NCBI GenBank assembly: GCA_045637765.1
Contig: JAZTZZ010000002.1
Coordinates: 1-24,000 of the forward strand
DNA from: Anaerovoracaceae bacterium
GTDB taxonomy: Bacteria > Bacillota > Clostridia > Peptostreptococcales > Anaerovoracaceae
Length of the DNA: 24,000 nt
Direction of reading: 5' to 3'
The notes beneath the pieces were generated by a model. That model was not told the origin of the DNA, did no database searches, and saw only the letters and a list, made by a program, of their open reading frames with translations. Shown here piece after piece: positions 4,460 to 21,257 of this stretch (the stretch's first letter is position 1; every line of letters begins with the position of its first letter). The translations under genes and the position numbers were made by a program.

Positions 4460-5344
4460 ATGACGTTGTTTAAAGGAACAGCCACAGCACTGATCACGCC
4501 GTTCCGCAATGAAAAAATAGATTATCCTGCCATGGGAAAATTAGTGGAATGGCAGCTGAAAAATGATGCAGATGCCCTTGTTGTCTGCGGTACTACCGGA
4601 GAAGCATCAACACTTTCAGGAAAAGAAAGAGTCCAGCTTACACATTTTGTGGTAGATCTGGTCAAGGGGCGTGTGCCGGTTATCGCAGGAACAGGAAGCA
4701 ACAATACAAAATTCACAACGGAACTTTCCAAAGAAATGGAAGAAATCGGAGCGGATGGACTGCTCGTTGTAACGCCCTATTACAACAAATGCACAGAATC
4801 CGGAATGATATCACACTATGAAAAAATTGCTGATAATGTTGATATTCCAATGATTCTCTACTCTGTGAAAAGCCGGACCGGTGTAAATATTTCACCAGAG
4901 GTTATCCGGATATTAAGCAGACATCCCCGGATTGCAGGAATTAAAGAAGCCAGCGGAGATATTGGCCAGATCTGTGAGATGGCCGCATACATCAACGATG
5001 ATTTCAGTATTTACAGCGGAAATGACGATATGACAATTCCGATTATGTCTTTGGGCGGCCTGGGCTGTATTTCCACCGTTTCCAATATCATTCCAAAGCA
5101 GTATTCACAAATGACACATGATTATCTGGCAGGCAACATCAAAGAAGCCTGCCGTCAGCAGATTGCTTTAAAGCCGCTGATTGACGCGGTTTTCACCGAA
5201 ATAAATCCGATACCGGTAAAAGCAGCACTGAATATGATGGGTATGTGTGAACTGGAATACCGTCTGCCGCTCTGTCCTCCGACCAATAAAACGCAGTACC
5301 TGCTGTACAATGTTCTGAGAGAATGCGGGCTGGTACAGAAATAA
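4460..5344 (+). CDS. dapA: 4-hydroxy-tetrahydrodipicolinate synthase
   Basis: 294 aa. Motifs TALITPF, VVCGTTGEASTLS and TPYYNK, plus the catalytic Lys context (IAGIKEASGD), are typical of DapA. Confidence 0.93.
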   Translation: MTLFKGTATALITPFRNEKIDYPAMGKLVEWQLKNDADALVVCGTTGEASTLSGKERVQLTHFVVDLVKGRVPVIAGTGSNNTKFTTELSKEMEEIGADGLLVVTPYYNKCTESGMISHYEKIADNVDIPMILYSVKSRTGVNISPEVIRILSRHPRIAGIKEASGDIGQICEMAAYINDDFSIYSGNDDMTIPIMSLGGLGCISTVSNIIPKQYSQMTHDYLAGNIKEACRQQIALKPLIDAVFTEINPIPVKAALNMMGMCELEYRLPLCPPTNKTQYLLYNVLRECGLVQK

Positions 5345-5354: not shown

Positions 5355-5390
5355 AAAAAAACACTGAGACATGTATGTCTCAGTGTTTTT
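5355..5390. terminator. bidirectional rho-independent terminator (ends dapA on + and the nucleoside operon on -)
   Basis: AAAAAAA-CACTGAGACAT-gt-ATGTCTCAGTG-TTTTT. The stem is perfect at 10-11 bp and is flanked by an A7 tract and a T5 tract, so it gives a U-run in both orientations. It lies between convergent genes. Confidence 0.8.
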
Positions 5391-5433: not shown

Positions 5434-6351
5434 CTAGTCCTTGATATCCCCTGCAGCCTGTGGACCCTGAACTCGTCTTCCGAATCCAATCAGAACTACC
5501 AGAGTCAGCAGATATGGAACCATCTGCAGAATTCTCTGCGGCAGTGCCATCTCCACGTTGATTCTCAGTGCCTGTGCAAAAGCAAACAGCAGGCTGGCCA
5601 GCAGAGATCCTGCCGGATTCCATCCGCCGAAAATTGTAGCCGCCATCGCCATAAATCCACGTCCGGCAACCATATCCTTAACGAACAGGTTACTCTGTAC
5701 GATGGACAGATAAGCACCTGCCAGACCGCACAGCATACCGCACAGAATTACACAGACATAACGATACTTGGTTACATTTACACCAGCTGTCGCAGCAGCC
5801 TTTGGATGGTCACCGATGGTACGCAGACGCAGACCAATATTGGACTTATACATCACATACCAGGACGCTGCAACAATAATCGCAGTAATATAAAGGAATG
5901 GTGACTGGTTATCAAACAGCTGACCGATTACAGGAATCTGGTTCAGTCCTGGAACAGTCATATTAGGAACCTGTTCAACAGTTCCGCTGCTGCCGTCAGA
6001 ATCCCAGATTGCACGGCAAAGTACAATGGTCAGACCGGAAGCGAAGATGTTAATACCAACCCCGCTTACAGACTGGTTCGTACGGAACTTAATGCATAAG
6101 GTAGCATGCAGAAGTCCAAACAGACCGCCTACAATTACGCCAAAGAGAACACCCATCCATGCACTGCCTGTAAAGTGAGCACCAACTACTGCACCGAATG
6201 CACCTATCAGCATCATACCTTCGATACCCAGATTGATGATACCGCTTCGTTCACACAAAACACCACCGATAGAAGCAAGTACCAGTGGAACTGCCATACG
6301 AATGGTAGCCATAAGCATATTCATAGAGAAGATACTTTCTAAAATTTCCAT
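5434..6351 (-). CDS. ABC transporter permease, BMP/nucleoside-type (NupQ/RnsD-like)
   Basis: 305 aa and polytopic. It is the last gene of the BMP-family importer and starts 1 nt after the upstream permease stop (GGAGGC RBS inside the upstream gene). Confidence 0.85.
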   Translation of the reverse strand: MEILESIFSMNMLMATIRMAVPLVLASIGGVLCERSGIINLGIEGMMLIGAFGAVVGAHFTGSAWMGVLFGVIVGGLFGLLHATLCIKFRTNQSVSGVGINIFASGLTIVLCRAIWDSDGSSGTVEQVPNMTVPGLNQIPVIGQLFDNQSPFLYITAIIVAASWYVMYKSNIGLRLRTIGDHPKAAATAGVNVTKYRYVCVILCGMLCGLAGAYLSIVQSNLFVKDMVAGRGFMAMAATIFGGWNPAGSLLASLLFAFAQALRINVEMALPQRILQMVPYLLTLVVLIGFGRRVQGPQAAGDIKD

Positions 6352-6352
6352 A

Positions 6353-7405
6353 TTACTTGCCTCCTTTCTTTACTTTAAACATCTTAACAAGAGCAGGTGT
6401 TGCTACGAACAGAATTACCAGACCCTGCATTACACTGATCATGCTGGTAGAAACGCCGGCCTCATAACTCATCTTCATGGAACCGGATTCAATCACACCG
6501 AACAGCAGTGCACTGAGCAGTACTGCAAACGGATTGTTACGTCCCAGAACAGCTACTGCAATACCGGTAAAACCATATCCAGGTGAGAACAGGTCGATGA
6601 AACGTCCGCCCATCTTACCGAATACTTCAGTTGCTCCTGCCAGACCAGCTAATGCACCACTGATGCCCATAGTCAGAACTACAGTACTGGACATTGCAAT
6701 ACCAGCTGCCTGTGCTGCCTTTGGATTTTCACCTACTGCACGGATGTTGTAACCCATACGTGTCTTCTCAAAGAAGAAATAAATAATTACAACCAGAACA
6801 ATTGCGATAATAAACGCAGTTGTCAGCTGTGTCTTCGGAATAATCTGTGTCAGAAGATATTCATCAGCCAGTGCAACAGTTTTTGCAGTCTGGCTGCCTT
6901 CTTCCTTCAGCGGACCATTTACAAAGTGGCTGGTCAGGAACTTACAGATATAGTTCAGCATGATAGCCACGATAACTTCGTTAATCTGCAGTTTTGCTTT
7001 CAGGAACCCGTTAAACGCACCTACCAGACCGCCTGCGAGTGCACCAATCAGAAGGCTTCCCCCGATAACAACCAGACGAGGGCTGCCCTGAAGTGCCAGA
7101 CCGGCTACTGCAGCGAAGAATGCACCCATGTACAGCTGACCTTCGCCCCCGATGTTAAAGATGCCGCCCTTATTGGCAAAAGCACAGGCCAGACCAACCA
7201 GGATCAGCGGTGTGGATTTTGCCAGGGTGTTAGCGATGGAGTTTGCAGAACCAAAGGCACCATCCAGCATTGCGGAATATGCAGCAATCGGATTATAACC
7301 TGCCATCACCATAATTAAAGCAGCCAGCACAAGAGAAAGTATGATAGCCGCAACAGAAACCCCTAAATCACCCAGGTTCTGTTTCAGATTCAGTTTATTT
7401 TTCAT
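6353..7405 (-). CDS. ABC transporter permease, BMP/nucleoside-type (NupP/RnsC-like)
   Basis: 350 aa and polytopic. It starts 2 nt after the ATPase stop, with a GGGAGAG RBS. Confidence 0.85.
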   Translation of the reverse strand: MKNKLNLKQNLGDLGVSVAAIILSLVLAALIMVMAGYNPIAAYSAMLDGAFGSANSIANTLAKSTPLILVGLACAFANKGGIFNIGGEGQLYMGAFFAAVAGLALQGSPRLVVIGGSLLIGALAGGLVGAFNGFLKAKLQINEVIVAIMLNYICKFLTSHFVNGPLKEEGSQTAKTVALADEYLLTQIIPKTQLTTAFIIAIVLVVIIYFFFEKTRMGYNIRAVGENPKAAQAAGIAMSSTVVLTMGISGALAGLAGATEVFGKMGGRFIDLFSPGYGFTGIAVAVLGRNNPFAVLLSALLFGVIESGSMKMSYEAGVSTSMISVMQGLVILFVATPALVKMFKVKKGGK

Positions 7406-7407
7406 GT

Positions 7408-8904
7408 TTACTCACTCTCCCTCTGTCCAGCCATCAGCAAGCCAATTGCTTCAGTGGAAAAATCTTCATTCTTCTTCAATGCCAGTACTTCACCCTTATA
7501 CAGAACTGCAATACGGTCACTGAGCTGACGGATGTCTGTTAATTCTGCAGAAATCAGCAGAACTGCCTTACCCTGGCTGCGCAGATCCATCAGAATTCTA
7601 TGAATATACTGAATTGCACCGATGTCCAGACCACGAACCGGCTGACATGCAATTACCAGGTCCGCATCCTTGTCTACTTCACGGCTGAGTACCATCTTCT
7701 GCTGGTTACCACCGGAAAGAGATCCGATATTCTGCTTGGAGCTGATTGCACGCACGTCAAAGTGTCCCATCAGGTAATCAGTCTGCTCATTCAGTTTCTT
7801 ATGATTGATAATGCCCTTCTTAACATACTTGTCAGAGAACTGGGTTCCCAGCAGGTAATTGTCAGTAATGGAGAAGCCAGGAAGAATCGCTCTTTCGTGA
7901 CGGTCAGAAGGAATATATCCAATTCCCTTCGCACAGCGCTTCTTAGTGCTCCAATGAGTGATATCATCGCCCAGGAACAGAATCTTGCCTTCACGGCACT
8001 TCATCAGACCCATAATCATTTCTTCCAGCTGCTGCTGGCCATTGCCTTCTACACCAGCAATACCGACGATTTCGCCTGCATGAATGTCAAAGGATACAGT
8101 GTCCTGAGCATTCGGCAGCAGGCGGACATTCTGAAGGGATAATACTACATCGCCCTTTGGAACTTCCGGACGTTCCATTTCGAAAGATACTTCACGGCCA
8201 ACCATCAGGTTTGCAAAATCGGATGTTTCTCTTCCTTCAACATCAATTGTGCAGACAGACTGTCCGGTACGGAGTACAGTAACACGGTCTGCAACCGCCT
8301 TAGTTTCATTCAGCTTATGAGTAATAAATACGATGGTCTTGCCCTCATTTTTCATATCCCTCAGGATATCCAGAAGCTGGAGAACTTCCGGAGGAGACAG
8401 AACCGCTGTCGGTTCGTCCAGAATAATGATATTGGCACCACGGTACAGGGTTTTTAAGATTTCCACTCTCTGTTTCATACCCACAGACAGTTCGGATACC
8501 TTTTGCGTTACATCCAGGTCAAAGTTGTACTGATCGGCCAGTTTCTGCACTGCTTCAATACTTTCTTTTTTTGGGATGCTGAATTTACCAAGTTCATTTC
8601 CAACTACTACATTTTCCCACACAGTCAAAGCATCTACCAGCATAAAATGCTGATGTACCATGCCCAGGCCCATGTGGAATGCATTACGGGAGGAATGATT
8701 GGTTACTTCCTGACCGTTGATTCGAATGGTACCGGCTTCCGGTTTGTACAGGCCGAACAGCACATTCATCAGAGTGGTTTTGCCCGCACCGTTTTCGCCC
8801 AGCAGGCAGTGAATTTCACCTTTTTTCACCTGCAGGTTAATATCTTTATTGGCATAGAAATCACCGAATTTTTTCGTGATTCCCAGCATTTCTACTGCAT
8901 ACAT
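7408..8904 (-). CDS. ABC transporter ATP-binding protein with two fused ATPase domains (NupO/RnsB-like)
   Basis: Walker A GENGAGKTT, signature LSVGMKQR and Walker B IIILDEPT are present, plus a second degenerate domain (LSGGNQQK, LLISAEL). The track start at 8913 is a GTG that lies inside the AAGAGGTG RBS. I call the ATG at 8904 (MYAVEMLGITKKF). Confidence 0.9.
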   Translation of the reverse strand: MYAVEMLGITKKFGDFYANKDINLQVKKGEIHCLLGENGAGKTTLMNVLFGLYKPEAGTIRINGQEVTNHSSRNAFHMGLGMVHQHFMLVDALTVWENVVVGNELGKFSIPKKESIEAVQKLADQYNFDLDVTQKVSELSVGMKQRVEILKTLYRGANIIILDEPTAVLSPPEVLQLLDILRDMKNEGKTIVFITHKLNETKAVADRVTVLRTGQSVCTIDVEGRETSDFANLMVGREVSFEMERPEVPKGDVVLSLQNVRLLPNAQDTVSFDIHAGEIVGIAGVEGNGQQQLEEMIMGLMKCREGKILFLGDDITHWSTKKRCAKGIGYIPSDRHERAILPGFSITDNYLLGTQFSDKYVKKGIINHKKLNEQTDYLMGHFDVRAISSKQNIGSLSGGNQQKMVLSREVDKDADLVIACQPVRGLDIGAIQYIHRILMDLRSQGKAVLLISAELTDIRQLSDRIAVLYKGEVLALKKNEDFSTEAIGLLMAGQRESE

Positions 8905-8913
8905 TTGTAACAC

Positions 8914-9081
8914 CTCTTATGCATTGATCTAGTCCGTATCTCATAAAAGACTTCAATACGGCTTCTTAATCATAATTCAAATAATGACTAAGAAGCAGCA
9001 TCGAAGGGACGCTGCCTCTGTAGTAAAGCGGCGTTACAGCCCCTGCCGGAACAGGAACTGTAACCCACTGTAGATTATGAA
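8914..9081 (-). other. structured 168-nt intercistronic spacer between the SBP and ATPase genes
   Basis: Minus-strand RNA hairpins are visible. One is GTTACAG..CCTG-ttccgg-CAGG..CTGTAAC (complement of 9033-9064). Another is GCTTCTTAGTCAT-tatttgaatt-ATGATTAAGAAGC (complement of 8961-8996; 13 bp, one G-U pair). A weaker CCGTAT...ATACGG follows. No U-run follows any of them. Confidence 0.4.
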
Positions 9082-10119
9082 TTAGTTAAAGTTAGCAGGA
9101 ACTGCGATTTCACCGCTGATAACCTTAGCTTCCAGGTCAGTCAGCTGTGCAACGATGTCTTCGGAAACCTGGATGTTGGAACCTTCCAGAGTGTAACCGA
9201 TACCGCCCTGTTCCAGACCCAGAACTACTTCTTCGCCCAGTGCCAGAGTGCCTTCTGCAGCGTTCTTAACGATTTCGAATGCAGCAGTGTCTACTCTCTT
9301 CAGCATGGAAGCAACGATGTGATCAGGGTCGATGATGTTCTGGTTGGAGTTGCAGCCGATAGCCATGAAACCAGCTTCCTTAGCTGCAGTGAATACGCCC
9401 AGACCGGAACCACCAGCTGCGTGGTAGATAATGTCGGAACCCTTGTTGAACTGGCTCAGAGCAATTTCCTTAGCAGTAGTAGTGTCGCCGAATGGGTTGT
9501 CACCAGCTACGTACTGAATATCAACGTTGATATCAGGGTTGATGTACTTAGCACCAGCATCGTAACCAGCTGCGAAACGCAGAATAGTGTCATTTTCCAT
9601 AGCGCCAACGAAACCGATGGAACCGTTGTCAGCCAGACCGTAAGTAGCAGCATCTTCCTTCATCAGAGCTGCCATAGCACCTACCAGGAAGGAACCTTCC
9701 TGTTCACGGCAAGTGTAGTTTACAATGTTGTCAGCATCGATGAAACCGTCGATGAATGCATAGTTCTGTTCAGGATAGTCTGGAGCTACAGCCATCAGAG
9801 CATCCATCTGGTCGAAACCAACGCAAACGATTACGCAGTATTCGCCGGAGTCGGACATGTCACGCATAATCTGTTCGAATTCAGTAACCTGCTTAGGTTC
9901 TGCATAGTCGAAATCGATGCCCAGTTCAGTCTTGGCACGTTCCATACCAGCGTAAATCAGGTCGTTGTAGCCCTGGTCACCCAGACCGCCAACACCCAGA
10001 ATGCAAGCTGCCTTCAGAGCAGCATCGCCTGCAGGATCTTCAGTAGTTTCGGAACCGCCGCATGCTGCCAGAGACAGCACCATAGCCAGAACCATAATCA
10101 GTGTTAATAATTTCTTCAT
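9082..10119 (-). CDS. BMP-family (basic membrane protein, PnrA/NupN/RnsA-like) nucleoside-binding lipoprotein
   Basis: 345 aa. The signal peptide carries the lipobox LSLAAC-GG. Motifs GGLGDQGYND and GFVGAMENDTILRFAAGY are typical of BMP/Med/TmpC substrate-binding proteins. RBS is AGGAGGAG. Confidence 0.9.
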   Translation of the reverse strand: MKKLLTLIMVLAMVLSLAACGGSETTEDPAGDAALKAACILGVGGLGDQGYNDLIYAGMERAKTELGIDFDYAEPKQVTEFEQIMRDMSDSGEYCVIVCVGFDQMDALMAVAPDYPEQNYAFIDGFIDADNIVNYTCREQEGSFLVGAMAALMKEDAATYGLADNGSIGFVGAMENDTILRFAAGYDAGAKYINPDINVDIQYVAGDNPFGDTTTAKEIALSQFNKGSDIIYHAAGGSGLGVFTAAKEAGFMAIGCNSNQNIIDPDHIVASMLKRVDTAAFEIVKNAAEGTLALGEEVVLGLEQGGIGYTLEGSNIQVSEDIVAQLTDLEAKVISGEIAVPANFN

Positions 10120-10170
10120 GTTAATCTCCTCCTGTCTTACAGCTTCTTAAGCTGCATGTATGGACTTTTT

Positions 10171-11115
10171 TTAATTTTGGAATGCTGCGAACAGAATGTT
10201 CAGTGCCTTTCTGGAGTCAACTTCCAGAGCATGCTCTACAAATCTGCCCTCGATAGGCTGCTCGCGAAGGTCAACTACGACCTTACCACGGCACCAGGTG
10301 CCGCCACATTCCACGCGGGTCACCATTTTGCGTGTATTGACTACACTTGGGTCAACTGCCACAACCATAGCCAACGGATCATGCAGAGGACTATACTCCA
10401 TGGTGTAGTTCTGTCTGCGGCTGCCGTCCATGTAATACTTCAGTTCCTCGGAAATAAAGGAAACCATTTCTTTCTTTTCCGGCAGACAGCAACGCAGAAG
10501 CTTATCCACGTCGTTTCTGGTTAAATGAGTCTTCAGAGTTACATCAAGACCAACCAGCGTCATATCCCAATCCGCCAACATAGCAATATCAGCTGCCTCC
10601 GGATCGCCGCCGATATTCGCCTCGACAACCGGGCTGACATTTCCGTGAGAATAAATAGTTCCTCCCATGGAAACAACACGTTTGATCTTTTTTGCATAGT
10701 CCGGATATTTTGTCAGCGTATTTGCCAGATTGGTCATACGGCCTAAAGATACCAGAACCAGTTCACCTTCATATTCACAGGCCTTCTGATACATGAAATC
10801 GCAGACATCCATATCCACAACCTTCTGTTCGGTTGCCGGAAGTTCCACATCTCCCATACCATTCTTTCCGTGAATAAAATCAGGGAAACCATCCACCTCA
10901 CCAACCAGTGGTTTTTCTGCACCGACACATACAGGAATTTTACCTTCCTTACCTGCCAGTTTCAGAATGCGTAAAGTATTTTCCGCACCCTGTGCAGCTG
11001 ACACGTTACCGGTACTGGTAGAAATACCTACGATTTCCACGTCAGGACGATTCAGTGCAAAAAGAATTGCAACGGAATCATCTACACCCGGATCACAGTC
11101 AATAAACATTTTCAT
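10171..11115 (-). CDS. nucleoside hydrolase (IUNH / Rih family)
   Basis: It carries the N-terminal fingerprint DCDPGVDDSVAILFAL (DxDxxxDD). The track start at 11124 is a GTG inside the AGAGGTG RBS. I call the ATG at 11115 (MKMFIDCDPG...). Confidence 0.9.
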   Translation of the reverse strand: MKMFIDCDPGVDDSVAILFALNRPDVEIVGISTSTGNVSAAQGAENTLRILKLAGKEGKIPVCVGAEKPLVGEVDGFPDFIHGKNGMGDVELPATEQKVVDMDVCDFMYQKACEYEGELVLVSLGRMTNLANTLTKYPDYAKKIKRVVSMGGTIYSHGNVSPVVEANIGGDPEAADIAMLADWDMTLVGLDVTLKTHLTRNDVDKLLRCCLPEKKEMVSFISEELKYYMDGSRRQNYTMEYSPLHDPLAMVVAVDPSVVNTRKMVTRVECGGTWCRGKVVVDLREQPIEGRFVEHALEVDSRKALNILFAAFQN

Positions 11116-11162
11116 AGTTATCACCTCTTCGCATGATGCTATCTATCATCAAGCGTTTCCGC

Positions 11163-12005
11163 TTAAATGATCACAATATCTGTAATTCCGTTCTTTCTCG
11201 CAATCTCTGCCAGTTCCTCCAGCTCTTCACGGGAAGGACTGCACATCTCACTGCGATATGGTTCACGGACACCAAAAGGACGGTAAGCACTGATCCGGTA
11301 ACGGATTGGCTTTTCTCCCTGCAGCGGTGCCAGAAGCTTTGTAATCCGGTCCACAGTTTCACAGTTGTCCAGATAACCTGGAACAACGACGGTGCGAATT
11401 TCTTCAAGCTTTCCGGCTTTTGCCAGTTTAACAGCATTTTCAATAACAGGACTGCTGCTCATTCCTGTCAGTTTCATATGTTCGGCCTCATTCCAGGCTT
11501 TCACATCCAGCATAACTCCATCACAGACAGCCATAAGTTCTTCGTCTGCAGTATAGTCATAGCTGCCGTTGCTGTCCATCAGTGCGGTCTTTCTTTTTTC
11601 CTTTACAAGACGGAACAGTTCCACCAGAAAATCTCTCTGAAGAGAACATTCTCCTCCGGAAACAGTGATTCCCCGGATAAACGGAATATCTTTTTTCAAA
11701 ATATCCATGATTTCCTGTGCAGAATACTCTTTTGTTTTCGGTGTGGACATATTCCGGCAGGCACTCAGACATGCATCGCACTGACAGCATGCATCTTCAT
11801 TCCATACTACTTTTCCATCTGCCATAGACAGAGCTCCTGCAGGACATGCACTGATGCATGCACCGCAGTGGCCGCAAAGATTGATGGTCTCAGGATTGTG
11901 GCAGTATCCACAGGTATAATTACATCCCTGCAGAAAAATTGCCGCCCGGTTTCCCGGTCCATCCACTACACTGCTGTGGATGATTTTATTTACAACAGCC
12001 TTCAT
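11163..12005 (-). CDS. yjjW: glycyl-radical enzyme activating protein, YjjW-like (radical SAM)
   Basis: 280 aa. It has GPGNRAAIFLQGCNYTCGYCHNPE (CxxxCxxC radical-SAM cluster) followed by two ferredoxin-type motifs, CGHCGACISACP and CCQCDACLSAC. It starts 2 nt after the GRE stop. Confidence 0.85.
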   Translation of the reverse strand: MKAVVNKIIHSSVVDGPGNRAAIFLQGCNYTCGYCHNPETINLCGHCGACISACPAGALSMADGKVVWNEDACCQCDACLSACRNMSTPKTKEYSAQEIMDILKKDIPFIRGITVSGGECSLQRDFLVELFRLVKEKRKTALMDSNGSYDYTADEELMAVCDGVMLDVKAWNEAEHMKLTGMSSSPVIENAVKLAKAGKLEEIRTVVVPGYLDNCETVDRITKLLAPLQGEKPIRYRISAYRPFGVREPYRSEMCSPSREELEELAEIARKNGITDIVII

Positions 12006-12007
12006 GG

Positions 12008-13528
12008 TTACTCCAGAGAACGAACCTTACGTTCCAGAATCTTACTGTTCTTTACTTCACCCAGACCCCACATAGCATTTGCCTGAGGTACTGCCTTACC
12101 TGCATCCAGCTTTTCAATATCAGACTTCTTCACCAGATAACCGGTGATACGAATGACATCTGCATCATCACCATATGTAGAGAAGTAACGCATACCCATA
12201 TCAAATCCACCCTTGATTATATCCAGCAGAGCTTCAGAATTGCGTTTTGCAGTTTCATCAAATGGGAAGATATCACCAACACCGGACTTGAAGTACGGAT
12301 GGAACTGGCTGGCATGAATCAGATGTTCATGGAGCGGCAGTTCGCTTCCAATCGCAATACGAACACCGGGGCTGATGGTGCAGTCTTCGGAAATGCCTAC
12401 CTGTGCATGGAGGGAGAAGTGATGGTCAGTTACTTCACAGTAACGGCTTTCGTAGCTTTCCACACATTCAGTCATCTTGTCCAGGATGCGCTTGGCCAGT
12501 GCGTCAGCCTCTTCGCTGTAACCGTAAGTACCGGTCTTGCCATCCTTCACCATCAGGGTGTTTACACACTCATTCATACCTACCATACCGAACATACCGG
12601 TAAAGCGGTCCAGATGCAGGAATCCTTCTGTTACCAGGAAGTTGGACTTGAAGAAATGAGTTTCTTCTACCAGGAAAGTAATCTTCTTTTCAATATATCC
12701 ACACAGTTCAGCCACTGCTTCAGGCAGCAGAGTCTCAATCAGGTGTTCACTGTTGTAAGCACGGTCTGCCATGTGACTTAATACCACACGGGACAGAGTA
12801 AACGCACCGCCGCCAACCGGCAGAGCATTGTAGCAGCTTGCGATGCCATAAGGTACATCGTACAGCTGATTGTATTCTTTATGATTTGCAAAGCTTGGCT
12901 TCGCACATGCCAGTGCACATTCCACGCTGGATACTGCAAAATCATCCGGAGTAATATCAGGATCATACTTCAGGGTAATCGCAGGCATTGCATTATCCTT
13001 GAATTCCTTCTGCACTTCCAGGATGATTCTGCCTGCACGGGTTGCTTCAGGTCCCAGATTCATGTGGCAGTAAGAGTCAGGAATGGTTCTGTCAAGGAAG
13101 AACATGAAGTGACGGATCAGCTTCTTAGCTTCTTCTTCATCTTCAATAAATGGTTCCAGCATCTTGTCCACATTGCCCAGGTATACAGGATAATGTGTTA
13201 CAGACGGAACATGACGGTAGATAACTAACAGTGCAGTGATTGCTTCCCACAGGTTTGTAACAGGCTCCAGACGCAGGAATTTACATCCTTCACGCAGCAT
13301 CTTTTCATAGTCCGGACAAATATAGCGCGGACAGTAAGTCGCGTTGCCTTCTGTCATAGTACAGAGAACACCGGCTTCCACCAGTTCTCTGAACTTCGGA
13401 GTCGTTTCAAAAAATTCAACATGATTCATCGGGATGGATGACAGACAAGTCATAGCCTGCTCGTGAGTCAGTGCACAATTATTGATAACAGACATTACGT
13501 CATTTTTCAGATTTCCAATAGTCAGCAT
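12008..13528 (-). CDS. yjjI: YjjI-family glycyl-radical enzyme (function unknown)
   Basis: 506 aa. The C-terminal glycyl-radical fingerprint is DADVIRITGYLVKK (Gly463, codon complement of 12140-12142). The length, the overall sequence and the adjacent YjjW-like activase match my memory of the short YjjI GRE family. RBS is AAGGAGAG. Confidence 0.85.
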   Translation of the reverse strand: MLTIGNLKNDVMSVINNCALTHEQAMTCLSSIPMNHVEFFETTPKFRELVEAGVLCTMTEGNATYCPRYICPDYEKMLREGCKFLRLEPVTNLWEAITALLVIYRHVPSVTHYPVYLGNVDKMLEPFIEDEEEAKKLIRHFMFFLDRTIPDSYCHMNLGPEATRAGRIILEVQKEFKDNAMPAITLKYDPDITPDDFAVSSVECALACAKPSFANHKEYNQLYDVPYGIASCYNALPVGGGAFTLSRVVLSHMADRAYNSEHLIETLLPEAVAELCGYIEKKITFLVEETHFFKSNFLVTEGFLHLDRFTGMFGMVGMNECVNTLMVKDGKTGTYGYSEEADALAKRILDKMTECVESYESRYCEVTDHHFSLHAQVGISEDCTISPGVRIAIGSELPLHEHLIHASQFHPYFKSGVGDIFPFDETAKRNSEALLDIIKGGFDMGMRYFSTYGDDADVIRITGYLVKKSDIEKLDAGKAVPQANAMWGLGEVKNSKILERKVRSLE

Positions 13529-13549
13529 TGTCGATTGTCTCTCCTTTTC

Positions 13550-14470
13550 TTATAATTCCGGCACGTAATTGACTACTTCTTCCAGAGATGGAATGGAAGT
13601 CTGTGCGCCCTTTCGTGTTACTGCAATTGCAGATGCTTTCTGACCGAAACGAATCGCATCATCCACAGACTCGCCCTTGCTCAGAGCCAGCGCAAAAGAT
13701 GCAGTGAAACAGTCACCGGCAGCGGTTGTATCCACCGCAGTGACCTTATTAGCAGGGAAGAAACGGCATCCGGCCTCATTCACCAGCAATAAGCCATCTC
13801 CACCTAAAGATACCATAACGTTCTTAACGCCCTTGGCACGCAGCTCTTCTGCAGCGCCACGGCGTTCTTCCTCCCCATTCAGGGAACGTCCCACCAGAAT
13901 TTCCAGTTCTGTTTCATTAGGTTTGATATAGTCAACACCATTCCAGATAGAATCCGGAAGATTTGATTTTGCAGGTGCAGGGTCCAGAATCACCATCTTA
14001 CCCAGGGAAACCGCCAGATCCTTGGCATATTCCACCACTTCAGGATCAATTTCCAGCTGCATCATCAGAATATCGCAATCTTCGATGAGCCCACGGTTTT
14101 CGTCAACAAGATTCCTTGTTACCAGTGCATTGGTTCCACCAATGAGAATGATGGAATTCGCACCGGAGCTGTCTACTGTAATAAAAGCCTGTCCGGTTGT
14201 TTCACCTTTCATAACCTCAATTCCGCTGGTGTTTACACCGACGGACTCCAGGTTATCTCTCAGCATCTGACCAAAGCTGTCATCTGCAACGGCACCGATC
14301 ATGCTTACGTTTCCCCCCATTTTACCTGCAGCATAGGCCTGATTAGCACCCTTACCTCCAGGCACCAGAAATACACCTGTACCTGTCAAAGTCTCACCGG
14401 ATTTCGGCATGTAAGGTGTTTCAATTACGGTATCCATGTTTAAGCTACCAATTACTAATATTTTTTTCAT
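13550..14470 (-). CDS. rbsK: ribokinase
   Basis: 306 aa. The N-terminus ILVIGSLNMDTV...GETL.G..F...PGGKGANQA and the C-terminal PfkB signature VDTTAAGDCF are both present. Confidence 0.9.
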   Translation of the reverse strand: MKKILVIGSLNMDTVIETPYMPKSGETLTGTGVFLVPGGKGANQAYAAGKMGGNVSMIGAVADDSFGQMLRDNLESVGVNTSGIEVMKGETTGQAFITVDSSGANSIILIGGTNALVTRNLVDENRGLIEDCDILMMQLEIDPEVVEYAKDLAVSLGKMVILDPAPAKSNLPDSIWNGVDYIKPNETELEILVGRSLNGEEERRGAAEELRAKGVKNVMVSLGGDGLLLVNEAGCRFFPANKVTAVDTTAAGDCFTASFALALSKGESVDDAIRFGQKASAIAVTRKGAQTSIPSLEEVVNYVPEL

Positions 14471-14542
14471 ATTCCTCTTCTATGTGTTCAACGTAAAATG
14501 CAATAATTTGTCGAAAAATATTTCAGCATATAGCTACACTAC

Positions 14543-14571
14543 ATTTTACAAGAACAAACATAAAAAGTCAA
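14543..14571 (-). promoter_or_regulatory. putative SigA-type promoter of the rbsK-yjjI-yjjW-rih-ABC operon
   Basis: The minus strand reads TTGACT (complement of 14566-14571), a 17-nt spacer, then TAAAAT (complement of 14543-14548), about 72 nt upstream of the rbsK ATG. It lies in the only AT-rich gap (14471-14596) of the long minus-strand gene run. Confidence 0.55.
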
Positions 14572-14596: not shown

Positions 14597-16015
14597 TTAC
14601 TCAATTTCCCATACGGTTAAAGGAATAAATATCACTTTTATAACGCCTCCACAGATCATTCCGGGATCATCAGAAGTTGTTACATTCAAATCGTATTGTT
14701 CCAGTCTGTATCCATTCATGTTTCTTGCACGTTCGATTGCCATATATTCAGCCTGTCCGCCGCCGATACTGCCAAGAATCCGCTCGTGGCCTACCAGCAT
14801 CATGCTTCCTGCCCCTCTCGGTGCGGACCCGTGCTTTTCCGTGATAATGCACAGTACTCCCGAATCTTTCGCAGTCAAAAGCTCCATGTCAGCAGATGCC
14901 GCATGGCTTACATTTTTAACCTGAATAATCTGTGCCAGAATACTGATAGCAATCTCTGCAGGTGTCACGGCACCGATGGAAAGTCCAATCGGCGCAAAGA
15001 TGGAATCAATCTGCTCTTTCTTAAAGCCATCTTCTTCAAGCATCTGTCTTGTCTTCGCTACCTTCGTCCTGCTGCCGATCATTCCCAGATACCGGTAATC
15101 TGACAGCAGAATGGTGTGTACACACTGATAATCCGCATTATGGTTCGGTGTAACCACTACATAATAAGCATCCGGTTCCAGATACTGTGCCAGATTATCA
15201 AAGGAATCGCAGATTCGTTCCGCAGCAGATGGAAATCGTTCTTCTGTTACCAGATCCTCACGGTCATCGATGACTTTCACAGAAAAGTCCAGATTGGATG
15301 CAAATGCTGCCACCTCTCTGGCCACATGGCCTCCCCCACAGATAATCAGTTTCGGCTGCGGACAGAACCATTCTTCTCTCAGGAAAGAGACATCCTGCTC
15401 CTGGGTCAGAATTGAGGCAACTGCTCTCTGGTACAGGGAACCGACATGAGTCAGATGCAGTCTCACCGGCACTCCAGGATACTGCAAACGAAGCGGAGTA
15501 AGGTAACCCTCAGTCAGAAGTTTCTGCACATGAACCGGCGTCATAATGGTGTCATCCTCAATGCCCAGACATTCCTTTACCAGTTCCAGACGGTGACAGA
15601 CCTCTCCCGCAGGTTTGCCCAAGCCATGGAGTCCGCATACCACGATAATTTCATCAACATTTTCCGGAATCACCGGCTCATTGTCGGCAGGATATTTCAG
15701 CGGCAGACGTCTGGATCCATCCGCCTCTACCAGGACTGCATCTGCATAGCGGCAGACCTCTTCATACACATCATTTGGCAATGCCGTCATCTTTCTGTCC
15801 GGATCTGCATCCGCACGGTTTCCCGCCATAGCATACCCCTGGTCCTTCAACTGACGAATAATTGTATCTGCATCCGCATCCAGCAGAGTATCCTCTTCTA
15901 TAAACATATGGGTAGTAGTGGTAATCAGAACTGATTTTCCCTCGCTGCGATACTGCTGTGCCATGGTATTAATTAATGTGGTTTTTCCTCCGGAACCAAC
16001 TACTGCTGTAATCAT
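14597..16015 (-). CDS. fusion protein: YqeC-like selenium-cofactor biosynthesis domain + XdhC-family domains (Rossmann part preceding the XdhC/CoxI part)
   Basis: 472 aa. Residues 1-~212 are YqeC-like (MITAVVGSGGKTTLINTMA...VLITTTTHMF...LVEADGSR). Residues ~221-367 form the XdhC C-terminal Rossmann-like domain (LIICGGGHVAREVAAFASNLDFSVKVIDDRE...IGLSIGAVTPAEIAISILAQII). Residues ~377-466 form the XdhC/CoxI N-type domain (HGSAPRGAGSMMLVGHERILGSIGGGQAE...ICGGVIKVIFIP). An ATGA overlap joins it to the upstream gene. Confidence 0.75.
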   Translation of the reverse strand: MITAVVGSGGKTTLINTMAQQYRSEGKSVLITTTTHMFIEEDTLLDADADTIIRQLKDQGYAMAGNRADADPDRKMTALPNDVYEEVCRYADAVLVEADGSRRLPLKYPADNEPVIPENVDEIIVVCGLHGLGKPAGEVCHRLELVKECLGIEDDTIMTPVHVQKLLTEGYLTPLRLQYPGVPVRLHLTHVGSLYQRAVASILTQEQDVSFLREEWFCPQPKLIICGGGHVAREVAAFASNLDFSVKVIDDREDLVTEERFPSAAERICDSFDNLAQYLEPDAYYVVVTPNHNADYQCVHTILLSDYRYLGMIGSRTKVAKTRQMLEEDGFKKEQIDSIFAPIGLSIGAVTPAEIAISILAQIIQVKNVSHAASADMELLTAKDSGVLCIITEKHGSAPRGAGSMMLVGHERILGSIGGGQAEYMAIERARNMNGYRLEQYDLNVTTSDDPGMICGGVIKVIFIPLTVWEIE

Positions 16016-16827
16016 AAGCCCAGCCGTCCTTTCTCATGGAGAATTGCTTCAATTACACCTCCGGCAATACATCTTGCCTTATCTGAAATGGTGAAGCAGT
16101 TTTCATATTCATCCAGACGCGGATCAATGTCTGCGATTTTAAATCCCCTGGTTACCGGATACCCATCACGGATCAGTCCGCGGAGAAGACCGTCTAAAGA
16201 AGCCTCTACAGGCACCGGACCCTCTGCAGTTTCAACCAGCGCAATAACCTCACCTTTCGTTACGGTATCCGTAATCTTCTTTACATTCCGAAGAATGCCT
16301 TCAGCAGGACAGTGAATCACACGTTCCTTCCCGAAACCGCCAATGATCCCAGGAACGCCCGTATTGGGCGCAGCAGAGCCGGTCCACAATACTTTGCCAA
16401 GGTTATGGCCCCGCTTCGTTTCGACAACGCAGGTCACATCCCTGCCCGCCTCAAAGCCAGGCCCCAGAGCAACCGTAACAGGTGCCATATCCTTATGAGT
16501 TCCCAGGTTCTTTTTCGCCAGAATCCCATCGACCACTGCCAGCGGTTTCATGGCTTCGATTGTATTGCCGGAAGGATCCACCAGCACCGTCAGCTTTCCT
16601 TCTGCAAGGAAAGCCTTGGCTTCTTCCAGAGAAGCTGCCAGCCAGCAGGTCATGTCCTCCACTGTGTGCTGCCCTGAATATACCGCTTCCGAAAATGCCA
16701 CATTTCTGCGGATAGCAGAAGGACTTTCCGTTTCCAGAATCAGTACCGGAAATCCACACTTTTTCAGTTTATAAATGGTTCCGGTGGCAAGATCGCCGCC
16801 GCCGCGTACAATAATCAGATTATTCAT
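16012..16827 (-). CDS. yqeB: selenium-dependent molybdenum hydroxylase system protein, YqeB / EF2563 family
   Basis: 271 aa. The N-terminus IIVRGGGDLATGTIYKLKKCGFPVLILETESPSAIRRNVAFSEAVY matches my memory of the EF2563/YqeB-C-terminal family. The context (selD, yedF, yqeC) supports the call. Confidence 0.75.
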   Translation of the reverse strand: MNNLIIVRGGGDLATGTIYKLKKCGFPVLILETESPSAIRRNVAFSEAVYSGQHTVEDMTCWLAASLEEAKAFLAEGKLTVLVDPSGNTIEAMKPLAVVDGILAKKNLGTHKDMAPVTVALGPGFEAGRDVTCVVETKRGHNLGKVLWTGSAAPNTGVPGIIGGFGKERVIHCPAEGILRNVKKITDTVTKGEVIALVETAEGPVPVEASLDGLLRGLIRDGYPVTRGFKIADIDPRLDEYENCFTISDKARCIAGGVIEAILHEKGRLGL

Positions 16828-16839
16828 CCCATTCTCCAG

Positions 16840-17883
16840 TTACTCTAAAATAATGTCTTTTTCTTCCTTTTCGGTCACATATCCGATGATTGCAGCCTGA
16901 GGAATCTGTTCCTTCAGCTCCGCAGCACACTGCTCTGCATACTTCTGCGGCAATGCAAACAGCAAACCGCCGCTGGTCTGCGGGTCATACAAGATATCCT
17001 CCATGGCCAGTGTGATCTGCCCGCGTTTTTCTACACCGTTCTGAGCATACTCTCGGTTCCGGTAAGCGCCGGCAGGAACCAGTCCCATGGACGCAAGTTC
17101 CAGCGCTTCCTTATGATACGGCACCTGATCCACCTGAATGTGCAGGCTGCATCCGCTTCCCTGGGCCATTTCATAACTGTGACCCATGAGTCCGAAACCA
17201 GTCACATCAGTACAGCTGTTTACCGGATATTTTACCATAATGTCTCTGGCGGCCCGGTTCAGTGTAGCCATCTGCTGATAGATGCGTTCCATCACCTCTT
17301 CACAGGTCATGTCCGCCTTGGCACCGGTGGTCAGAATCCCCACACCAAGAGGTTTTGTCAGAATCAGAACATCGCCTGGCTTGGCATTGGAATTGGTCAG
17401 AACCTTATCCGGGTGTACAAATCCGGACACTGCCAGGCCGTAAATAGGTTCCGCCCCCTTGATCGTATGGCCCCCTGTTATAATCGCCCCAGCATCATAT
17501 GCGGCATCGTAGCCGCCCCGCAGAATCTCACGAATGACAGAGTCCGCCATTCCCTCCACTGCGCAAAGTATATTCAGTGCCAGCTTCGGCTCCCCACCCA
17601 TGGCATACACATCGCTGAGAGCATTTGTTGCAGCAATTTTTCCGTACAGGTACGGTTCATCTACAATCGGCGGGAAGAAATCGGTGGTCTGAATCAGGGC
17701 CGTGTTTTCATCAATTACATATACGCTTGCATCATCACTCTTTTCATATCCCACAATCAGGTTGGGGTCGGAATGAGTACGGAAGCCCTCCAGCATACGT
17801 GCCAGTGTGCCGGCCCCCATTTTCGCACCGCATCCGGCACAGTTTGCCAGTTTGGTCAGTTTTACATCATTTTCCTTCGTCAT
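16840..17883 (-). CDS. selD: selenide, water dikinase (selenophosphate synthetase), Cys-type
   Basis: 347 aa. The N-terminal LTKLANCAGCGAKMG aligns with the E. coli SelD GAGCGCK loop. The catalytic position is a TGC Cys codon (complement of 17830-17832), not TGA. AIR-synthase-like motifs (DDASV, TTDFF) are present. Confidence 0.92.
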   Translation of the reverse strand: MTKENDVKLTKLANCAGCGAKMGAGTLARMLEGFRTHSDPNLIVGYEKSDDASVYVIDENTALIQTTDFFPPIVDEPYLYGKIAATNALSDVYAMGGEPKLALNILCAVEGMADSVIREILRGGYDAAYDAGAIITGGHTIKGAEPIYGLAVSGFVHPDKVLTNSNAKPGDVLILTKPLGVGILTTGAKADMTCEEVMERIYQQMATLNRAARDIMVKYPVNSCTDVTGFGLMGHSYEMAQGSGCSLHIQVDQVPYHKEALELASMGLVPAGAYRNREYAQNGVEKRGQITLAMEDILYDPQTSGGLLFALPQKYAEQCAAELKEQIPQAAIIGYVTEKEEKDIILE

Positions 17884-18515
17884 TACGGTCTCACCACACT
17901 GCGGGCAGTTTCCATCCGCTCTACGATATCATACATATTAGTTACGCCGCCAACCGCCAGCTTTTCTTTCAGGCCATAGAAGTCCAGGCAGGTGCCGCAG
18001 GTAAGAATGGTAACACCTTCGGATTCCAGCAGCTTCAGGTCTTCCAGTGTGTCTGCACCTTCACAGGTCAGGTACGCACCGGTGTTATAGCAGAGAATGG
18101 TTTTCGGCAGGTAGTCCTGTCTGGTCAGAGCGAAAACAAAGGCTTTCATCAGAGAAGTTCCCAGCTTTTCATCACCGGTGCCCATCACATTGGCAGGCAG
18201 TACCACCAGCATGCCCTTCTTTCTGCGGTCTGCTTCGCAGGAAATTTCTTCTTCTGCGGTTTCATCTTCCGCTTCTGTCACAGGTGCGGATGCAGCAATA
18301 TTCATAATCACTGCAAAATCTTTCTCCCCGTCCTTCTCAGCGGATGCAGTGAATCCCTTATGCTCTGCAAATCTGCAGAGATTCTGCACTGCGATTTCGT
18401 TGTCCACCAGAACAGTCAGCACATCGCCTTCCTTCAGTTCTTCTGCTGCCTTCTTTGCATTTACTACAGGCAGAGGACATGCCATACCTCTGCAGTCAAT
18501 CTTCTTTTCCATCAT
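17883..18515 (-). CDS. yedF: sulfurtransferase-like selenium metabolism protein YedF (TusA/SirA domain + DsrE-like domain)
   Basis: 210 aa. The N-terminus is IDCRGMACPLPVVNAKKA (CPxP TusA motif). The C-terminus is GTGDEKLGTSLMKAF...LTCGTCLDFYG...GGVTNMYDI. Its stop overlaps the selD start by 1 nt (TAATG). Confidence 0.8.
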   Translation of the reverse strand: MMEKKIDCRGMACPLPVVNAKKAAEELKEGDVLTVLVDNEIAVQNLCRFAEHKGFTASAEKDGEKDFAVIMNIAASAPVTEAEDETAEEEISCEADRRKKGMLVVLPANVMGTGDEKLGTSLMKAFVFALTRQDYLPKTILCYNTGAYLTCEGADTLEDLKLLESEGVTILTCGTCLDFYGLKEKLAVGGVTNMYDIVERMETARSVVRP

Positions 18516-19654
18516 TCTTCCTCCTGTGCCAGTTCCTGCAGGGCAGAAACTGCAATCTTGATTTCTTCCATTGTGTTATAGTGTGAAAAGCTGAAACGGA
18601 CCGCCCCTTGTTTTACTGTCCCCAGGGCCTGGTGCATCAGCGGTGCACAGTGAGCTCCCGGCCTGGTGGCGATTCCGTACTGTGCCGATAGCACATCGCT
18701 GACTTCACCCGAATCGTAATTCCTCACATTGAGTGTCACGATGCCGCATCTGTTTTTCGTTTCAAAATCCCCATACACGGTGATTCCGTCAATCTGACGG
18801 ACCCGGTTATAAAACTCCCACATCAGATTCTGTTCCGTCTCCCGGATAGTATCCAGCCCGGATTCCTGTATATATTTCACTGCCGCAGCCAGTCCGGCGA
18901 TGCCGTGTCCGTTTAAGGTACCGGCTTCCAGTGCCGTCGGCATCTGGGGCGGGTGTTCCTTCAGATACGTCTGCACACCGCTTCCTCCTGAGAGCAGCGG
19001 ACGTATACGAAGACCTTCTCTCACATAGATACCGCCTGTTCCCTGTGGTCCCAGAAGTCCCTTATGGCCTGTAAAGCAGAGAATATCGATGTTCATCTTC
19101 TGCACATCAATGTCGAATACCCCTGCAGTCTGAGACGCATCGACGATATAGATCAGTCCATGTTTCCTCGCTATTGTACCAATGCGTATCAGGTCCAGCA
19201 GGTTTCCGGTCAGATTGGATCCATGCGTCGTAATCAGAACTTTCGTATTGGGCCGAATGTTTTTTTCAATATCCTCATAGTTTATATTCCCCTGCTGATC
19301 TGCCGGCAGAATCGTCAGCTGAACTCCTGCCTTTTCCATTTCGTACAGGGGCCGCAGAACAGAGTTATGTTCCAGCGCTGTAGTGATCACATGGTCCCCT
19401 GGACTCAGAGTTCCCTTGATGGCGATATTCAGACTTTGAGTGGAATTGGCAGTAAAGGCAATCTGTTCGGGGCTTTCTGCATGAAACAGTTCCGCCAGAG
19501 CAAGTCTTGCATCATAAATCACCCTGGAGGTACTCAGTGCATTGCTGTGTGCTCCCCGTCCCGAGTTGCCCATGGTATATAGCGCGTCTGTTATGGCCTG
19601 AATCACACATTCCGGTTTGCGAAGTGTTGTCGCCGCATTATCGAAATAAATCAT
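18512..19654 (-). CDS. class-V aminotransferase-fold cysteine desulfurase / selenocysteine lyase-like enzyme
   Basis: 380 aa. It begins IYFDNAATT, carries the PLP-Lys context LCFTGHKGLLGPQGTGG, and has GAHCAP near the C-terminus. An ATGA overlap joins it to yedF. Confidence 0.85.
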   Translation of the reverse strand: MIYFDNAATTLRKPECVIQAITDALYTMGNSGRGAHSNALSTSRVIYDARLALAELFHAESPEQIAFTANSTQSLNIAIKGTLSPGDHVITTALEHNSVLRPLYEMEKAGVQLTILPADQQGNINYEDIEKNIRPNTKVLITTHGSNLTGNLLDLIRIGTIARKHGLIYIVDASQTAGVFDIDVQKMNIDILCFTGHKGLLGPQGTGGIYVREGLRIRPLLSGGSGVQTYLKEHPPQMPTALEAGTLNGHGIAGLAAAVKYIQESGLDTIRETEQNLMWEFYNRVRQIDGITVYGDFETKNRCGIVTLNVRNYDSGEVSDVLSAQYGIATRPGAHCAPLMHQALGTVKQGAVRFSFSHYNTMEEIKIAVSALQELAQEEE

Positions 19655-19665
19655 ATTTTTTCACC

Positions 19666-19902
19666 TCACACCATACAGAGGCAGCAGCCCTGATGCTGAA
19701 TGCTGTGGCGCTGCATCAGATCCAGCAGCGCAGCCTGACTTTCCGGCTTTGCACACCAGGCCAGACCACAGTCTGCCGTAATGCTTCCCGGTACCGGAAT
19801 AATTCTTCCTTCTGCCCCTTCTTCCTTACAGGCCTGTTCCATGGCCATTGCGGCCGTAGTCGTATAGAATGTAATTACAAGTTTTTCTGTTCGCTTAATC
19901 AT
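19666..19902 (-). CDS. DUF3343-like small protein (putative Se/S carrier)
   Basis: The track ORF extends to 19944. I prefer the ATG at 19902 (MIKRTEKLVITFYTTTAAMAMEQACKEEG...IPVPGSITADCGLAW), whose length and beta-alpha start are typical of DUF3343. This start overlaps the upstream stop (cTATGATTAA). Confidence 0.7.
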   Translation of the reverse strand: MIKRTEKLVITFYTTTAAMAMEQACKEEGAEGRIIPVPGSITADCGLAWCAKPESQAALLDLMQRHSIQHQGCCLCMV

Positions 19903-20989: not shown

Positions 20990-21257
20990 AACGCGTCATC
21001 CATTCCTTTCCCTCTGTTGTCAGCTGGCTTCCTCCTCCATCTTTTCCGCCTGTCATGCGGGAAGTCAGCGGAAATCCCAGAGCAGTTTCCGCATTCTTCA
21101 ATACTTTCAAAGCCTTGGTATAGGCCATGTTCATAGACATGGCAGCTGCACGCAGTGACCCTGTTTCTTCTACCGCACGTAAAAGTCTGAACGGTCCTTC
21201 CCCAAAAAACTTTTCCTCGTTGTCATCGAGAAAAACAATCTTTGTCACGGCCTTCAT
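20916..21257 (-). CDS. ModE N-terminal-domain-like winged-helix regulator (short LysR/ModE-type HTH, no Mop domains)
   Basis: 113 aa. GSLRAAAMSMNMAYTKALKVLKNAETALGFPLTSRMTGGKDGGGSQLTTEGKEWMTRY matches the ModE N-domain pattern (GS...AA..L..SY..AW..I..LN......L......GG..GGG..LT..G). An ATGA overlap joins it to the upstream ATPase gene. Confidence 0.75.
   Translation of the reverse strand: MKAVTKIVFLDDNEEKFFGEGPFRLLRAVEETGSLRAAAMSMNMAYTKALKVLKNAETALGFPLTSRMTGGKDGGGSQLTTEGKEWMTRYEAYRNACIQANSQLYLEFFSEQR

Follow-up and report, generated by a model that had tools for sequence, protein, structure and literature searches.

A 24,000-nucleotide stretch of the Anaerovoracaceae bacterium contig JAZTZZ010000002.1 (assembly GCA_045637765.1, positions 1 to 24,000; hereafter the window) carries eight minus-strand genes in which a YjjI-family glycyl radical enzyme (GRE) and its YjjW-family activase lie among genes for nucleoside uptake and cleavage. 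The same association recurs in Firmicutes, Fusobacteriota, Spirochaetota and Proteobacteria, and the predicted fold of YjjI is closest to that of NrdD, the class III ribonucleotide reductase (RNR). The YjjI family itself was already known; what is new is a well-supported functional context and an RNR fold without the reducing cysteine. We read the eight genes, with somewhat less than even confidence, as an anaerobic nucleoside uptake-and-breakdown unit in which YjjI acts on the imported compound at its ribosyl or pentose-phosphate moiety.

The eight open reading frames (ORFs) listed for this region run from 14470 down to 5434. The first encodes a ribokinase, RbsK (13550..14470, 306 aa; PfkB, 237.6 bits), that passes the TIGR02152 equivalog cut-off (349.5 against 299.65 bits). 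It is followed by YjjI (12008..13528, 506 aa), the radical-SAM activase YjjW (11163..12005, 280 aa) and an IUNH-family nucleoside hydrolase (10171..11124, with a probable start at ATG 11115; PF01156, 283 bits). The last four genes make up a complete ABC importer: a BMP/PnrA-family lipoprotein as substrate-binding component (9082..10119; PF02608, 203.8 bits; lipobox LAAC), a 501-aa ATPase with two ATP-binding domains (7408..8913; ABC_tran matched over two stretches) and two BPD_transp_2 permeases (6353..7405, 160 bits; 5434..6351, 144 bits). Intergenic gaps from rbsK to the last permease are 21, 2, 38 (47 from ATG 11115), 51, 168, 2 and 1 nt. The original prediction, made from the letters of the sequence, had placed the pair between a ribokinase and a nucleoside hydrolase, followed by a complete BMP-family importer; its ORFs, coordinates, strand and gaps are all borne out, and profiles matched each of the four importer components.

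Family membership of YjjI is clear. The protein scores 642.6 bits against TIGR04040 (cut-off 498.3; model positions 2-497 of 497) and 661 bits against PF11230 (cut-off 23; positions 1-485 of 485), far above the curated cut-offs. The general models stay below theirs, with 23.7 bits for PF13597 (NRDD; gathering score 26.2), a partial match over residues 270-363 only, and 20.7 bits for PF02901 (cut-off 24.3). The glycyl-radical fingerprint claimed for the 506-aa ORF is present as VIRITGYLV and contains G463 (codon 12140..12142, minus strand). With the cut-off of the activase model TIGR04041 also passed, the pair belongs, as had been proposed, to a recognised GRE/activase family.

A profile search over 1.84 billion cluster representatives returned 622 hits, with only about 20 full-length clusters at 50% identity. 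Judged by these sequences, the family is small, compact, sharply bounded and highly conserved from gut Firmicutes to Enterobacterales. Among some 20 full-length clade representatives, E60, R68, Y69, H155, N157, S231, C232, Y233, N234, R247, E301, H374, Q376, D382, R390, R460 and G463 are essentially invariant, and both the representatives and the window protein carry the S-C-Y-N and R-x-T-G-Y motifs. This invariance persists down to 34% identity, the exceptions being truncated or aberrant sequences. The near-invariance of so many polar residues speaks for a single substrate throughout the family and allows evidence from gene context to be pooled over clades. C232 (codon 12833..12835, minus strand) is the sole cysteine invariant across the family; on the basis of invariance and position in the structural model, it is the predicted thiyl-radical residue in the SCYN motif, as G463 is the predicted glycyl-radical site in RITGY. 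The window protein has no cysteine beyond residue 383, so that a zinc site is impossible. In live E. coli cells, Gly465 of YjjI, the equivalent of G463, was labelled by a radical-trapping probe (bioRxiv 10.64898/2026.08.13.742689).

In an AlphaFold2 model of YjjI (pLDDT 93, pTM 0.92), C232 lies at the tip of a beta-hairpin (227-230/234-237) and G463 at the tip of another (458-460/465-467), the arrangement typical of GREs. The modelled 10-stranded alpha/beta barrel with its Cys and Gly finger loops places the protein in the GRE superfamily. When the model was compared with the PDB using Foldseek, the 31 best matches were all NrdD (E down to 1.9e-19, TMq 0.59-0.76), and GRE dehydratases (2e-13) and PFL (2e-12) ranked behind. 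No PDB sequence was matched significantly in a profile search (best NrdD match E = 0.23), and no solved YjjI-family structure was detectable by sequence. In a low-probability (29%) profile alignment of YjjI with NrdD, C175 of the E. coli enzyme falls in a gap at the PRY..PDY motif, and invariant Tyr69 adjoins the position of the NrdD reducing cysteine. Despite the NrdD fold, YjjI is not an RNR.

The activase begins 2 nt after yjjI and scores 367.5 bits against TIGR04041 (cut-off 250.2). Its motifs were located as claimed: the radical-SAM CX3CX2C motif CNYTCGYC at residue 28 (11901-11924) and the ferredoxin-type motifs CGHCGACISAC at 44 (11844-11876) and CCQCDACLSAC at 73 (11757-11789), all on the minus strand. 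NrdG models give 51-84 bits, below their cut-offs of 126-131; the HypD activase model gives 149 bits and TIGR02494 gives 150 bits. By these scores and motifs YjjW is a PflC/dehydratase-type activase with ferredoxin-type motifs, not one of NrdG type. In the hydrolase, the N-terminal DCDPGVDD fits the DXDXXXDD metal-binding motif, and scores lie under the cut-offs of all specific equivalogs (RihA, RihB, RihC and UriH). The BMP protein likewise matches no specific characterised equivalog, and the nearest NCBIfam models for the importer, 'putative B6 ABC transporter', give scores far below their cut-offs. From the adjacent hydrolase and ribokinase, we infer that the importer ligand is a nucleoside.

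To compare gene neighbourhoods, a pattern scan of one genome per species recovered at least 596 yjjI loci. The 80 closest to the query were kept, which biases the census toward Firmicutes. All ORFs within 8 kb of yjjI were clustered without reference labels, and nucleoside genes were counted over 79 loci. YjjW is adjacent in 77 of the 80. Other neighbours are ABC ATPases (31 loci), Bmp binding proteins (22), permeases (18), IUNH hydrolases (16), Crp/Fnr regulators (15, of which 12 are divergent within 300 bp), PNP_UDP_1 phosphorylases (14), PfkB kinases (13), amidohydrolases (12) and GntR regulators (10). Of the 79 loci, 26 have a core nucleoside gene no more than 1.5 kb from yjjI, and the number rises to 36 at 5 kb. 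The enrichment that the original prediction had asked to be counted is accompanied by a steep decay with distance: over successive 1-kb bins from yjjI, IUNH counts are 9, 3, 4, 0, 0, 2, 0 and 0 and Bmp counts 12, 7, 3, 0, 0, 0, 0 and 0, while sequence availability over these bins is nearly flat (141 to 105 flanks). When YjjI proteins are grouped into lineages at 70% identity, 12 of 20 have at least one nucleoside-associated locus; within the clade to which the window belongs, the association is seen at 23 of 26 loci. The yjjI-adjacent kinases exceed the ribokinase equivalog cut-off in four lineages (the window, L034, L011 and L082).

At least six gene arrangements occur among the census loci. 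That of the window is rbsK-yjjI-yjjW-IUNH-BMP-ABC. A second, IUNH-IUNH-rbsK-yjjI-yjjW with the transporter downstream, is found in Youngiibacter, with a shorter IUNH-rbsK-yjjI-yjjW form in Leptotrichia. In Christensenellaceae and others, a transporter-deaminase-phosphorylase operon is divergent from yjjI-yjjW. Elsewhere the pair sits between the BMP and ATPase genes (L064, L075) or is followed directly by BMP-ABC, and in L012 deoC lies directly upstream of yjjI. A homologue at 52% identity repeats rbsK-yjjI-yjjW-IUNH in its Pfam-annotated context, and at a further one a PTS EIIC gene precedes yjjI-yjjW-IUNH-GntR. Among representatives of the most divergent clades, one has YjjI with an adenosine-deaminase fragment, PfkB and the activase, another has a BPD_transp_2 permease directly upstream of YjjI, and one locus has nothing relevant near YjjI. 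At L097 (195-11720), the locus of a divergent YjjI (39% identity), ten co-directional genes encode IUNH, an ADP-ribosylglycohydrolase, PfkB, PNP_UDP_1, a sulfatase/phosphodiesterase-family protein, YjjI, YjjW, MFS, Bmp and an ABC component. This operon gives a hint that the ribosyl substrate extends beyond the standard nucleosides.

Among the Proteobacteria, the position given for the pair, beside deoCABD in E. coli K-12, proved correct: yjjI-yjjW is divergent from deoCABD across a 257-bp gap. In Edwardsiella piscicida, deoDBAC is divergent from yjjI-yjjW, with a NupC-type transporter immediately downstream, and another proteobacterium (L090) has NupC-yjjI-yjjW. Thus two non-homologous nucleoside transporter families (BMP-ABC and NupC) cluster with yjjI-yjjW across four phyla, as do three systems that cleave sugar from base (IUNH, a Udp-like phosphorylase and deoCABD). 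Two database proteins join YjjI to other domains: P0053 (653 aa) to Bmp and P0124 (574 aa) to DeoC. These are probably gene-call or assembly fusions of neighbours, echoing the same adjacencies.

The literature searchable up to an August 2026 preprint, with subscription journals largely outside it, assigns no reaction or substrate to YjjI. NCBIfam of June 2026 agrees, as does the earlier statement that no function was assigned, and lists the YjjI and YjjW models as hypothetical equivalogs. Both genes are induced anaerobically in Yersinia, and other papers on yjjI report anaerobic induction or abundance changes only. The same searchable literature holds no nucleoside or ribose scavenging operon with a GRE and activase. 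To our knowledge, no described system of that kind includes the two, and YjjI is among the last E. coli GREs without an assigned reaction.

On our reading, the BMP lipoprotein and ABC importer would take up a nucleoside or related riboside, the hydrolase would cleave it to base and ribose, and the ribokinase would convert the ribose to ribose-5-phosphate. YjjW would put a radical on Gly463 of YjjI which, as a minimal GRE with a class III RNR fold, would pass it to Cys232 at the finger-loop tip and take a hydrogen from the imported compound at its ribosyl or pentose-phosphate moiety. The most likely outcome would be a redox-neutral elimination, comparable to the opening half of RNR catalysis or to the reaction of GRE diol dehydratases. 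Our confidence differs among these parts. It is likely that the substrate is nucleoside-derived: the cross-phylum nucleoside context supports the radical step that had been proposed on such a substrate, although the chemistry stays speculation. That the pentose rather than the base is attacked is close to an even call. The ribosyl moiety is the more economical choice because the contexts release different bases and converge on pentose or its phosphate, while the active site is invariant; we infer this convergence on pentose phosphate for all the contexts. An elimination is possible but leans toward the unlikely. It is likelier than a reduction because no second conserved cysteine delivers reducing equivalents, and the missing cysteine thus turns into a specific mechanistic prediction, elimination rather than reduction. 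The most explicit form, in which YjjI is the catabolic counterpart of RNR and performs just the opening half of its reaction, abstracting the 3-hydrogen of ribose-5-phosphate, a ribonucleoside or a blocked riboside and then eliminating the 2-substituent, we regard as doubtful.

Comparison with known enzymes shows where YjjI would stand. With NrdD, the model shares the 10-stranded alpha/beta barrel, the catalytic cysteine at a finger-loop tip and the C-terminal glycyl-radical hairpin; in the low-probability alignment, the G-x-x-G-x-x-E-x-x-N pattern at YjjI 314-323 matches GYIGIHETIN of E. coli NrdD; and both occur with ribosyl compounds. Two features that define NrdD, a C-terminal Zn(Cys)4 site ahead of the Gly loop and activation by an NrdG-type enzyme, are both absent from YjjI. 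It is also about 200 residues shorter than E. coli NrdD (712 aa), lacks the ATP cone and sits in a catabolic context with transport genes. The bottom-face reducing cysteine is conserved in all known RNRs; YjjI has no equivalent of C175 of E. coli, C79 of T4 or C125 of T. maritima.

The GRE 1,2-eliminases (the B12-independent glycerol and propanediol dehydratases, HypD and CutC) use a single catalytic cysteine in redox-neutral reactions, as proposed for YjjI. They are encoded inside catabolic operons, have activases with extra ferredoxin-type clusters and match YjjI significantly in structure (E 2e-13 to 1e-11). However, they are larger (about 780-850 aa against 506) and rank below NrdD structurally, and they carry a C-x-E arrangement in the Cys loop where YjjI has S-C-Y-N. 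E. coli K-12 YjjI/YjjW (b4380/b4379) resembles the window pair in having the activase gene immediately downstream and in anaerobic expression, and its YjjI, at 36% identity, has all the invariant residues listed above. Its partner is the divergent deoCABD, where the window has rbsK, IUNH and BMP-ABC in a single operon, and no transporter is adjacent, though NupC adjoins in Edwardsiella and L090. Scavenging operons with BMP/PnrA importers, Rih hydrolases and RbsK draw on the same transporter, hydrolase and ribokinase families as the window.

Several observations weigh against an action on the nucleoside-derived pentose. No nucleoside gene lies within 8 kb in 41 of 79 loci, mostly Clostridium with yjjI-yjjW alone, and only 12 of 50 loci in the large Clostridium-type clade are associated. 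In Proteus and Providencia, as at two other sampled loci, yjjI-yjjW occurs without deo or nucleoside genes; deo adjacency was accordingly rejected as a family-wide trait and is limited to some lineages. Of about 90 loci examined, only three (E. coli, Edwardsiella and L012) have DeoC next to yjjI. The neighbouring regulators are of Crp/Fnr and Rrf2 types, not nucleoside repressors. A 2011 biclustering of E. coli and Salmonella data, in which yjjI co-varies with FNR/NarL nitrate-nitrite genes, grouped it with narG and FNR/NarL motifs and proposed a role in nitrogen metabolism. No conserved neighbour that would process the predicted keto-deoxy product was found at the loci examined, and the mapping of residues between YjjI and NrdD rests on the 29%-probability profile alignment. 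Finally, ribose-5-phosphate already enters the pentose phosphate pathway, which leaves no evident need for a radical step.

This last difficulty would be met if YjjI acted on a specialised riboside (2'-O-methyl, 5'-deoxy or ADP-ribose-derived, from RNA or cofactor turnover) from which elimination removes a blocking group, since such compounds would not reach central metabolism through the importer, hydrolase and kinase alone. We consider this variant unlikely. It is in keeping with a hydrolase and a BMP protein that fit no specific characterised equivalog, with the ADP-ribosylglycohydrolase and sulfatase/phosphodiesterase-family protein of L097, and with TRZ/ATZ-type deaminases at other loci that resemble 5'-deoxyadenosine/methylthioadenosine deaminases, below the cut-offs. 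Counter to this, the loci share no conserved marker specific to a single modified nucleoside, adjacent kinases pass the cut-off for a plain ribokinase, and the partner in Enterobacterales is the ordinary deoCABD.

Alternatively, the nucleoside context may be secondary, with the core role of YjjI elsewhere in anaerobic physiology (nitrate, nitrite or NO stress, or fermentation) and the clustering a product of co-regulation or cassette history. The roughly half of loci lacking nucleoside genes and the bicluster with narG would fit, as would the divergent Crp/Fnr regulators (cNMP_binding + HTH_Crp_2, close to yjjI in 14 loci; for example L004, L005, L006, L009, L021 and L025), the Rrf2-family regulator adjoining yjjI in L088 and hydEGF downstream of yjjI in C. 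sporogenes. The window has no regulator of these kinds. Yet an association that spans four phyla, involves non-homologous transporters in at least six arrangements and decays steeply with distance makes this improbable. The Crp/Fnr regulator is also present at loci with nucleoside genes (such as L004, L006 and L009), so that anaerobic control need not conflict with a nucleoside role.

That the nearest fold is NrdD, and that deoC is divergent from or adjacent to yjjI at the three loci named above, could instead point to a cryptic reductase. Such an enzyme would turn a ribosyl substrate (a ribonucleoside or ribose-5-phosphate) into its 2-deoxy form using formate or another donor, and its product would feed DeoC, to give glyceraldehyde-3-phosphate and acetaldehyde, or deoxynucleoside salvage. 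Tyr69, beside the position of the NrdD reducing cysteine, makes another hydrogen donor conceivable. We find a reductase distinctly unlikely, as there is no second invariant cysteine, no C-terminal Zn(Cys)4 site and no cysteine past residue 383, DeoC adjacency is rare, and the window hydrolase and ribokinase point to catabolism of ribose itself. An anaerobic base-degradation step on the released nucleobase or a deaminated derivative, to which deaminase-type amidohydrolases near yjjI in 12 loci (one above the 8-oxoguanine deaminase cut-off) and the selenium/molybdenum-hydroxylase maturation cluster immediately upstream in the window (described below) might point, is distinctly improbable, because the glycosidic enzymes (IUNH; Udp-like; DeoA and DeoD) release different bases and yet the YjjI active-site residues are invariant, that cluster is not kept even beside a 90%-identical copy of the operon (L013), and the nearest fold binds a ribose.

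The operon itself recurs as a block. Window positions 5435-14485 share 90.2% nucleotide identity with 9043-18094 of L013, an Anaerovoracaceae metagenome-assembled genome (MAG). The two ends of the shared block are the stop codon of the last permease gene and a point 15 nt ahead of the rbsK start, and no similarity was detectable in either flank. In Anaerotignum (L002) the block recurs at about 80%, with rbsK absent. A block of this identity between unrelated flanks implies that the eight genes travel as a cassette and suggests cassette-like transfer or relocation of the whole operon. This behaviour independently supports a functional unit.

The original prediction had put all eight genes under one promoter and one terminator, and both sites were found. 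A predicted promoter-like site, TTGACT-17 nt-TAAAAT (14543..14571, minus strand), lies 5' of rbsK and matches 10 of 12 consensus positions; it is a consensus match only and stands outside the block shared with L013, where similarity ends at 14485. The intrinsic terminator (5355..5390, minus strand) has a 15-bp perfect stem and a U-tract (z = -6.3 against shuffles) and is probably bidirectional, shared with the convergent dapA. The one-promoter, one-terminator description may nevertheless be too simple, because the 168-nt spacer between the BMP and ATPase genes (8914..9081, minus strand) is strongly structured (minimum free energy -63.3 kcal/mol, z = -5.3), its first hairpin being a 14-bp stem directly 3' of the BMP stop codon. 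The spacer matched no Rfam family; it could stabilise the mRNA or cause partial termination and in this way raise expression of the binding protein. A single unprocessed transcript for the eight genes is plausible. No Rfam riboswitch or leader naming an inducer was hit at the gathering threshold, and the one miRNA hit was at chance level.

Long antisense ORFs, up to 317 aa, lie opposite the yjjW, BMP and ATPase genes (11133-12086, 9319-10107 and 7600-8142, plus strand, and others). They have no Pfam matches and are best read as by-products of codon usage; equivalents recur at homologous loci. Census neighbour clusters 2, 3, 5, 6, 8, 13 and 15 were such antisense shadows of yjjI, yjjW, BMP and ATPase genes and were discarded.

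Pseudouridine catabolism was considered as a third independent context. In five Clostridium loci (L043, L046, L052, L076 and L081), a PsuK-like HTH-PfkB kinase and a PsuG-like Indigoidine_A protein are encoded 3.5-6.4 kb downstream of yjjI, and an ECF S-component accompanies this Psu-like cluster in five loci. At L043, a 513-aa protein without a Pfam match and a YbaK-like gene separate the Psu-like genes from yjjI-yjjW. In a Bacillales MAG (L050), a kinase and a PsuG-like gene lie 2.5-3.6 kb upstream of yjjI on the opposite strand. We down-weighted this context (6 loci), as the genes are 3-6 kb away with unrelated genes between and five of the six are Clostridium loci with one co-directional arrangement in common.

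Immediately upstream of the operon, a tightly packed minus-strand gene set (14597-20989) looks like a maturation cluster for the cofactor of a selenium-dependent molybdenum hydroxylase. In order of coordinates, it comprises a YqeC+XdhC fusion (14597-16015), a 271-aa ORF without a Pfam match (16012-16827), a SelD-like AIRS protein (16840-17883), a TusA-domain protein (17883-18515), a class-V aminotransferase of cysteine-desulfurase/selenocysteine-lyase type (18512-19654) and an NTPase+MobA-like protein (19895-20989). The cluster was rejected as part of the yjjI system, the block shared with L013 ending at 14485. A FecCD/Peripla_BP_2-type ABC importer of the iron-siderophore or cobalamin class (21254-23992, minus strand) lies further upstream. 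On the other side, dapA (4460-5344, plus strand) converges on the shared terminator, and asd (3251-4336) and a BacA/UppP gene (2315-3232) are on the minus strand.

If YjjI is indeed a catabolic counterpart of RNR, it would provide an oxygen-sensitive route for nucleoside pentose carbon that is independent of the pentose phosphate pathway, and the enzyme would stand, as a living intermediate, between class III RNR on one side and the glycyl radical dehydratases on the other. Gene context narrows the search for its substrate to a small set of commercially available ribosides and pentose phosphates. Confirmation would add a radical step to the anaerobic nucleoside catabolism of gut bacteria and would bear on the kinship of ribonucleotide reductases and other glycyl radical enzymes.

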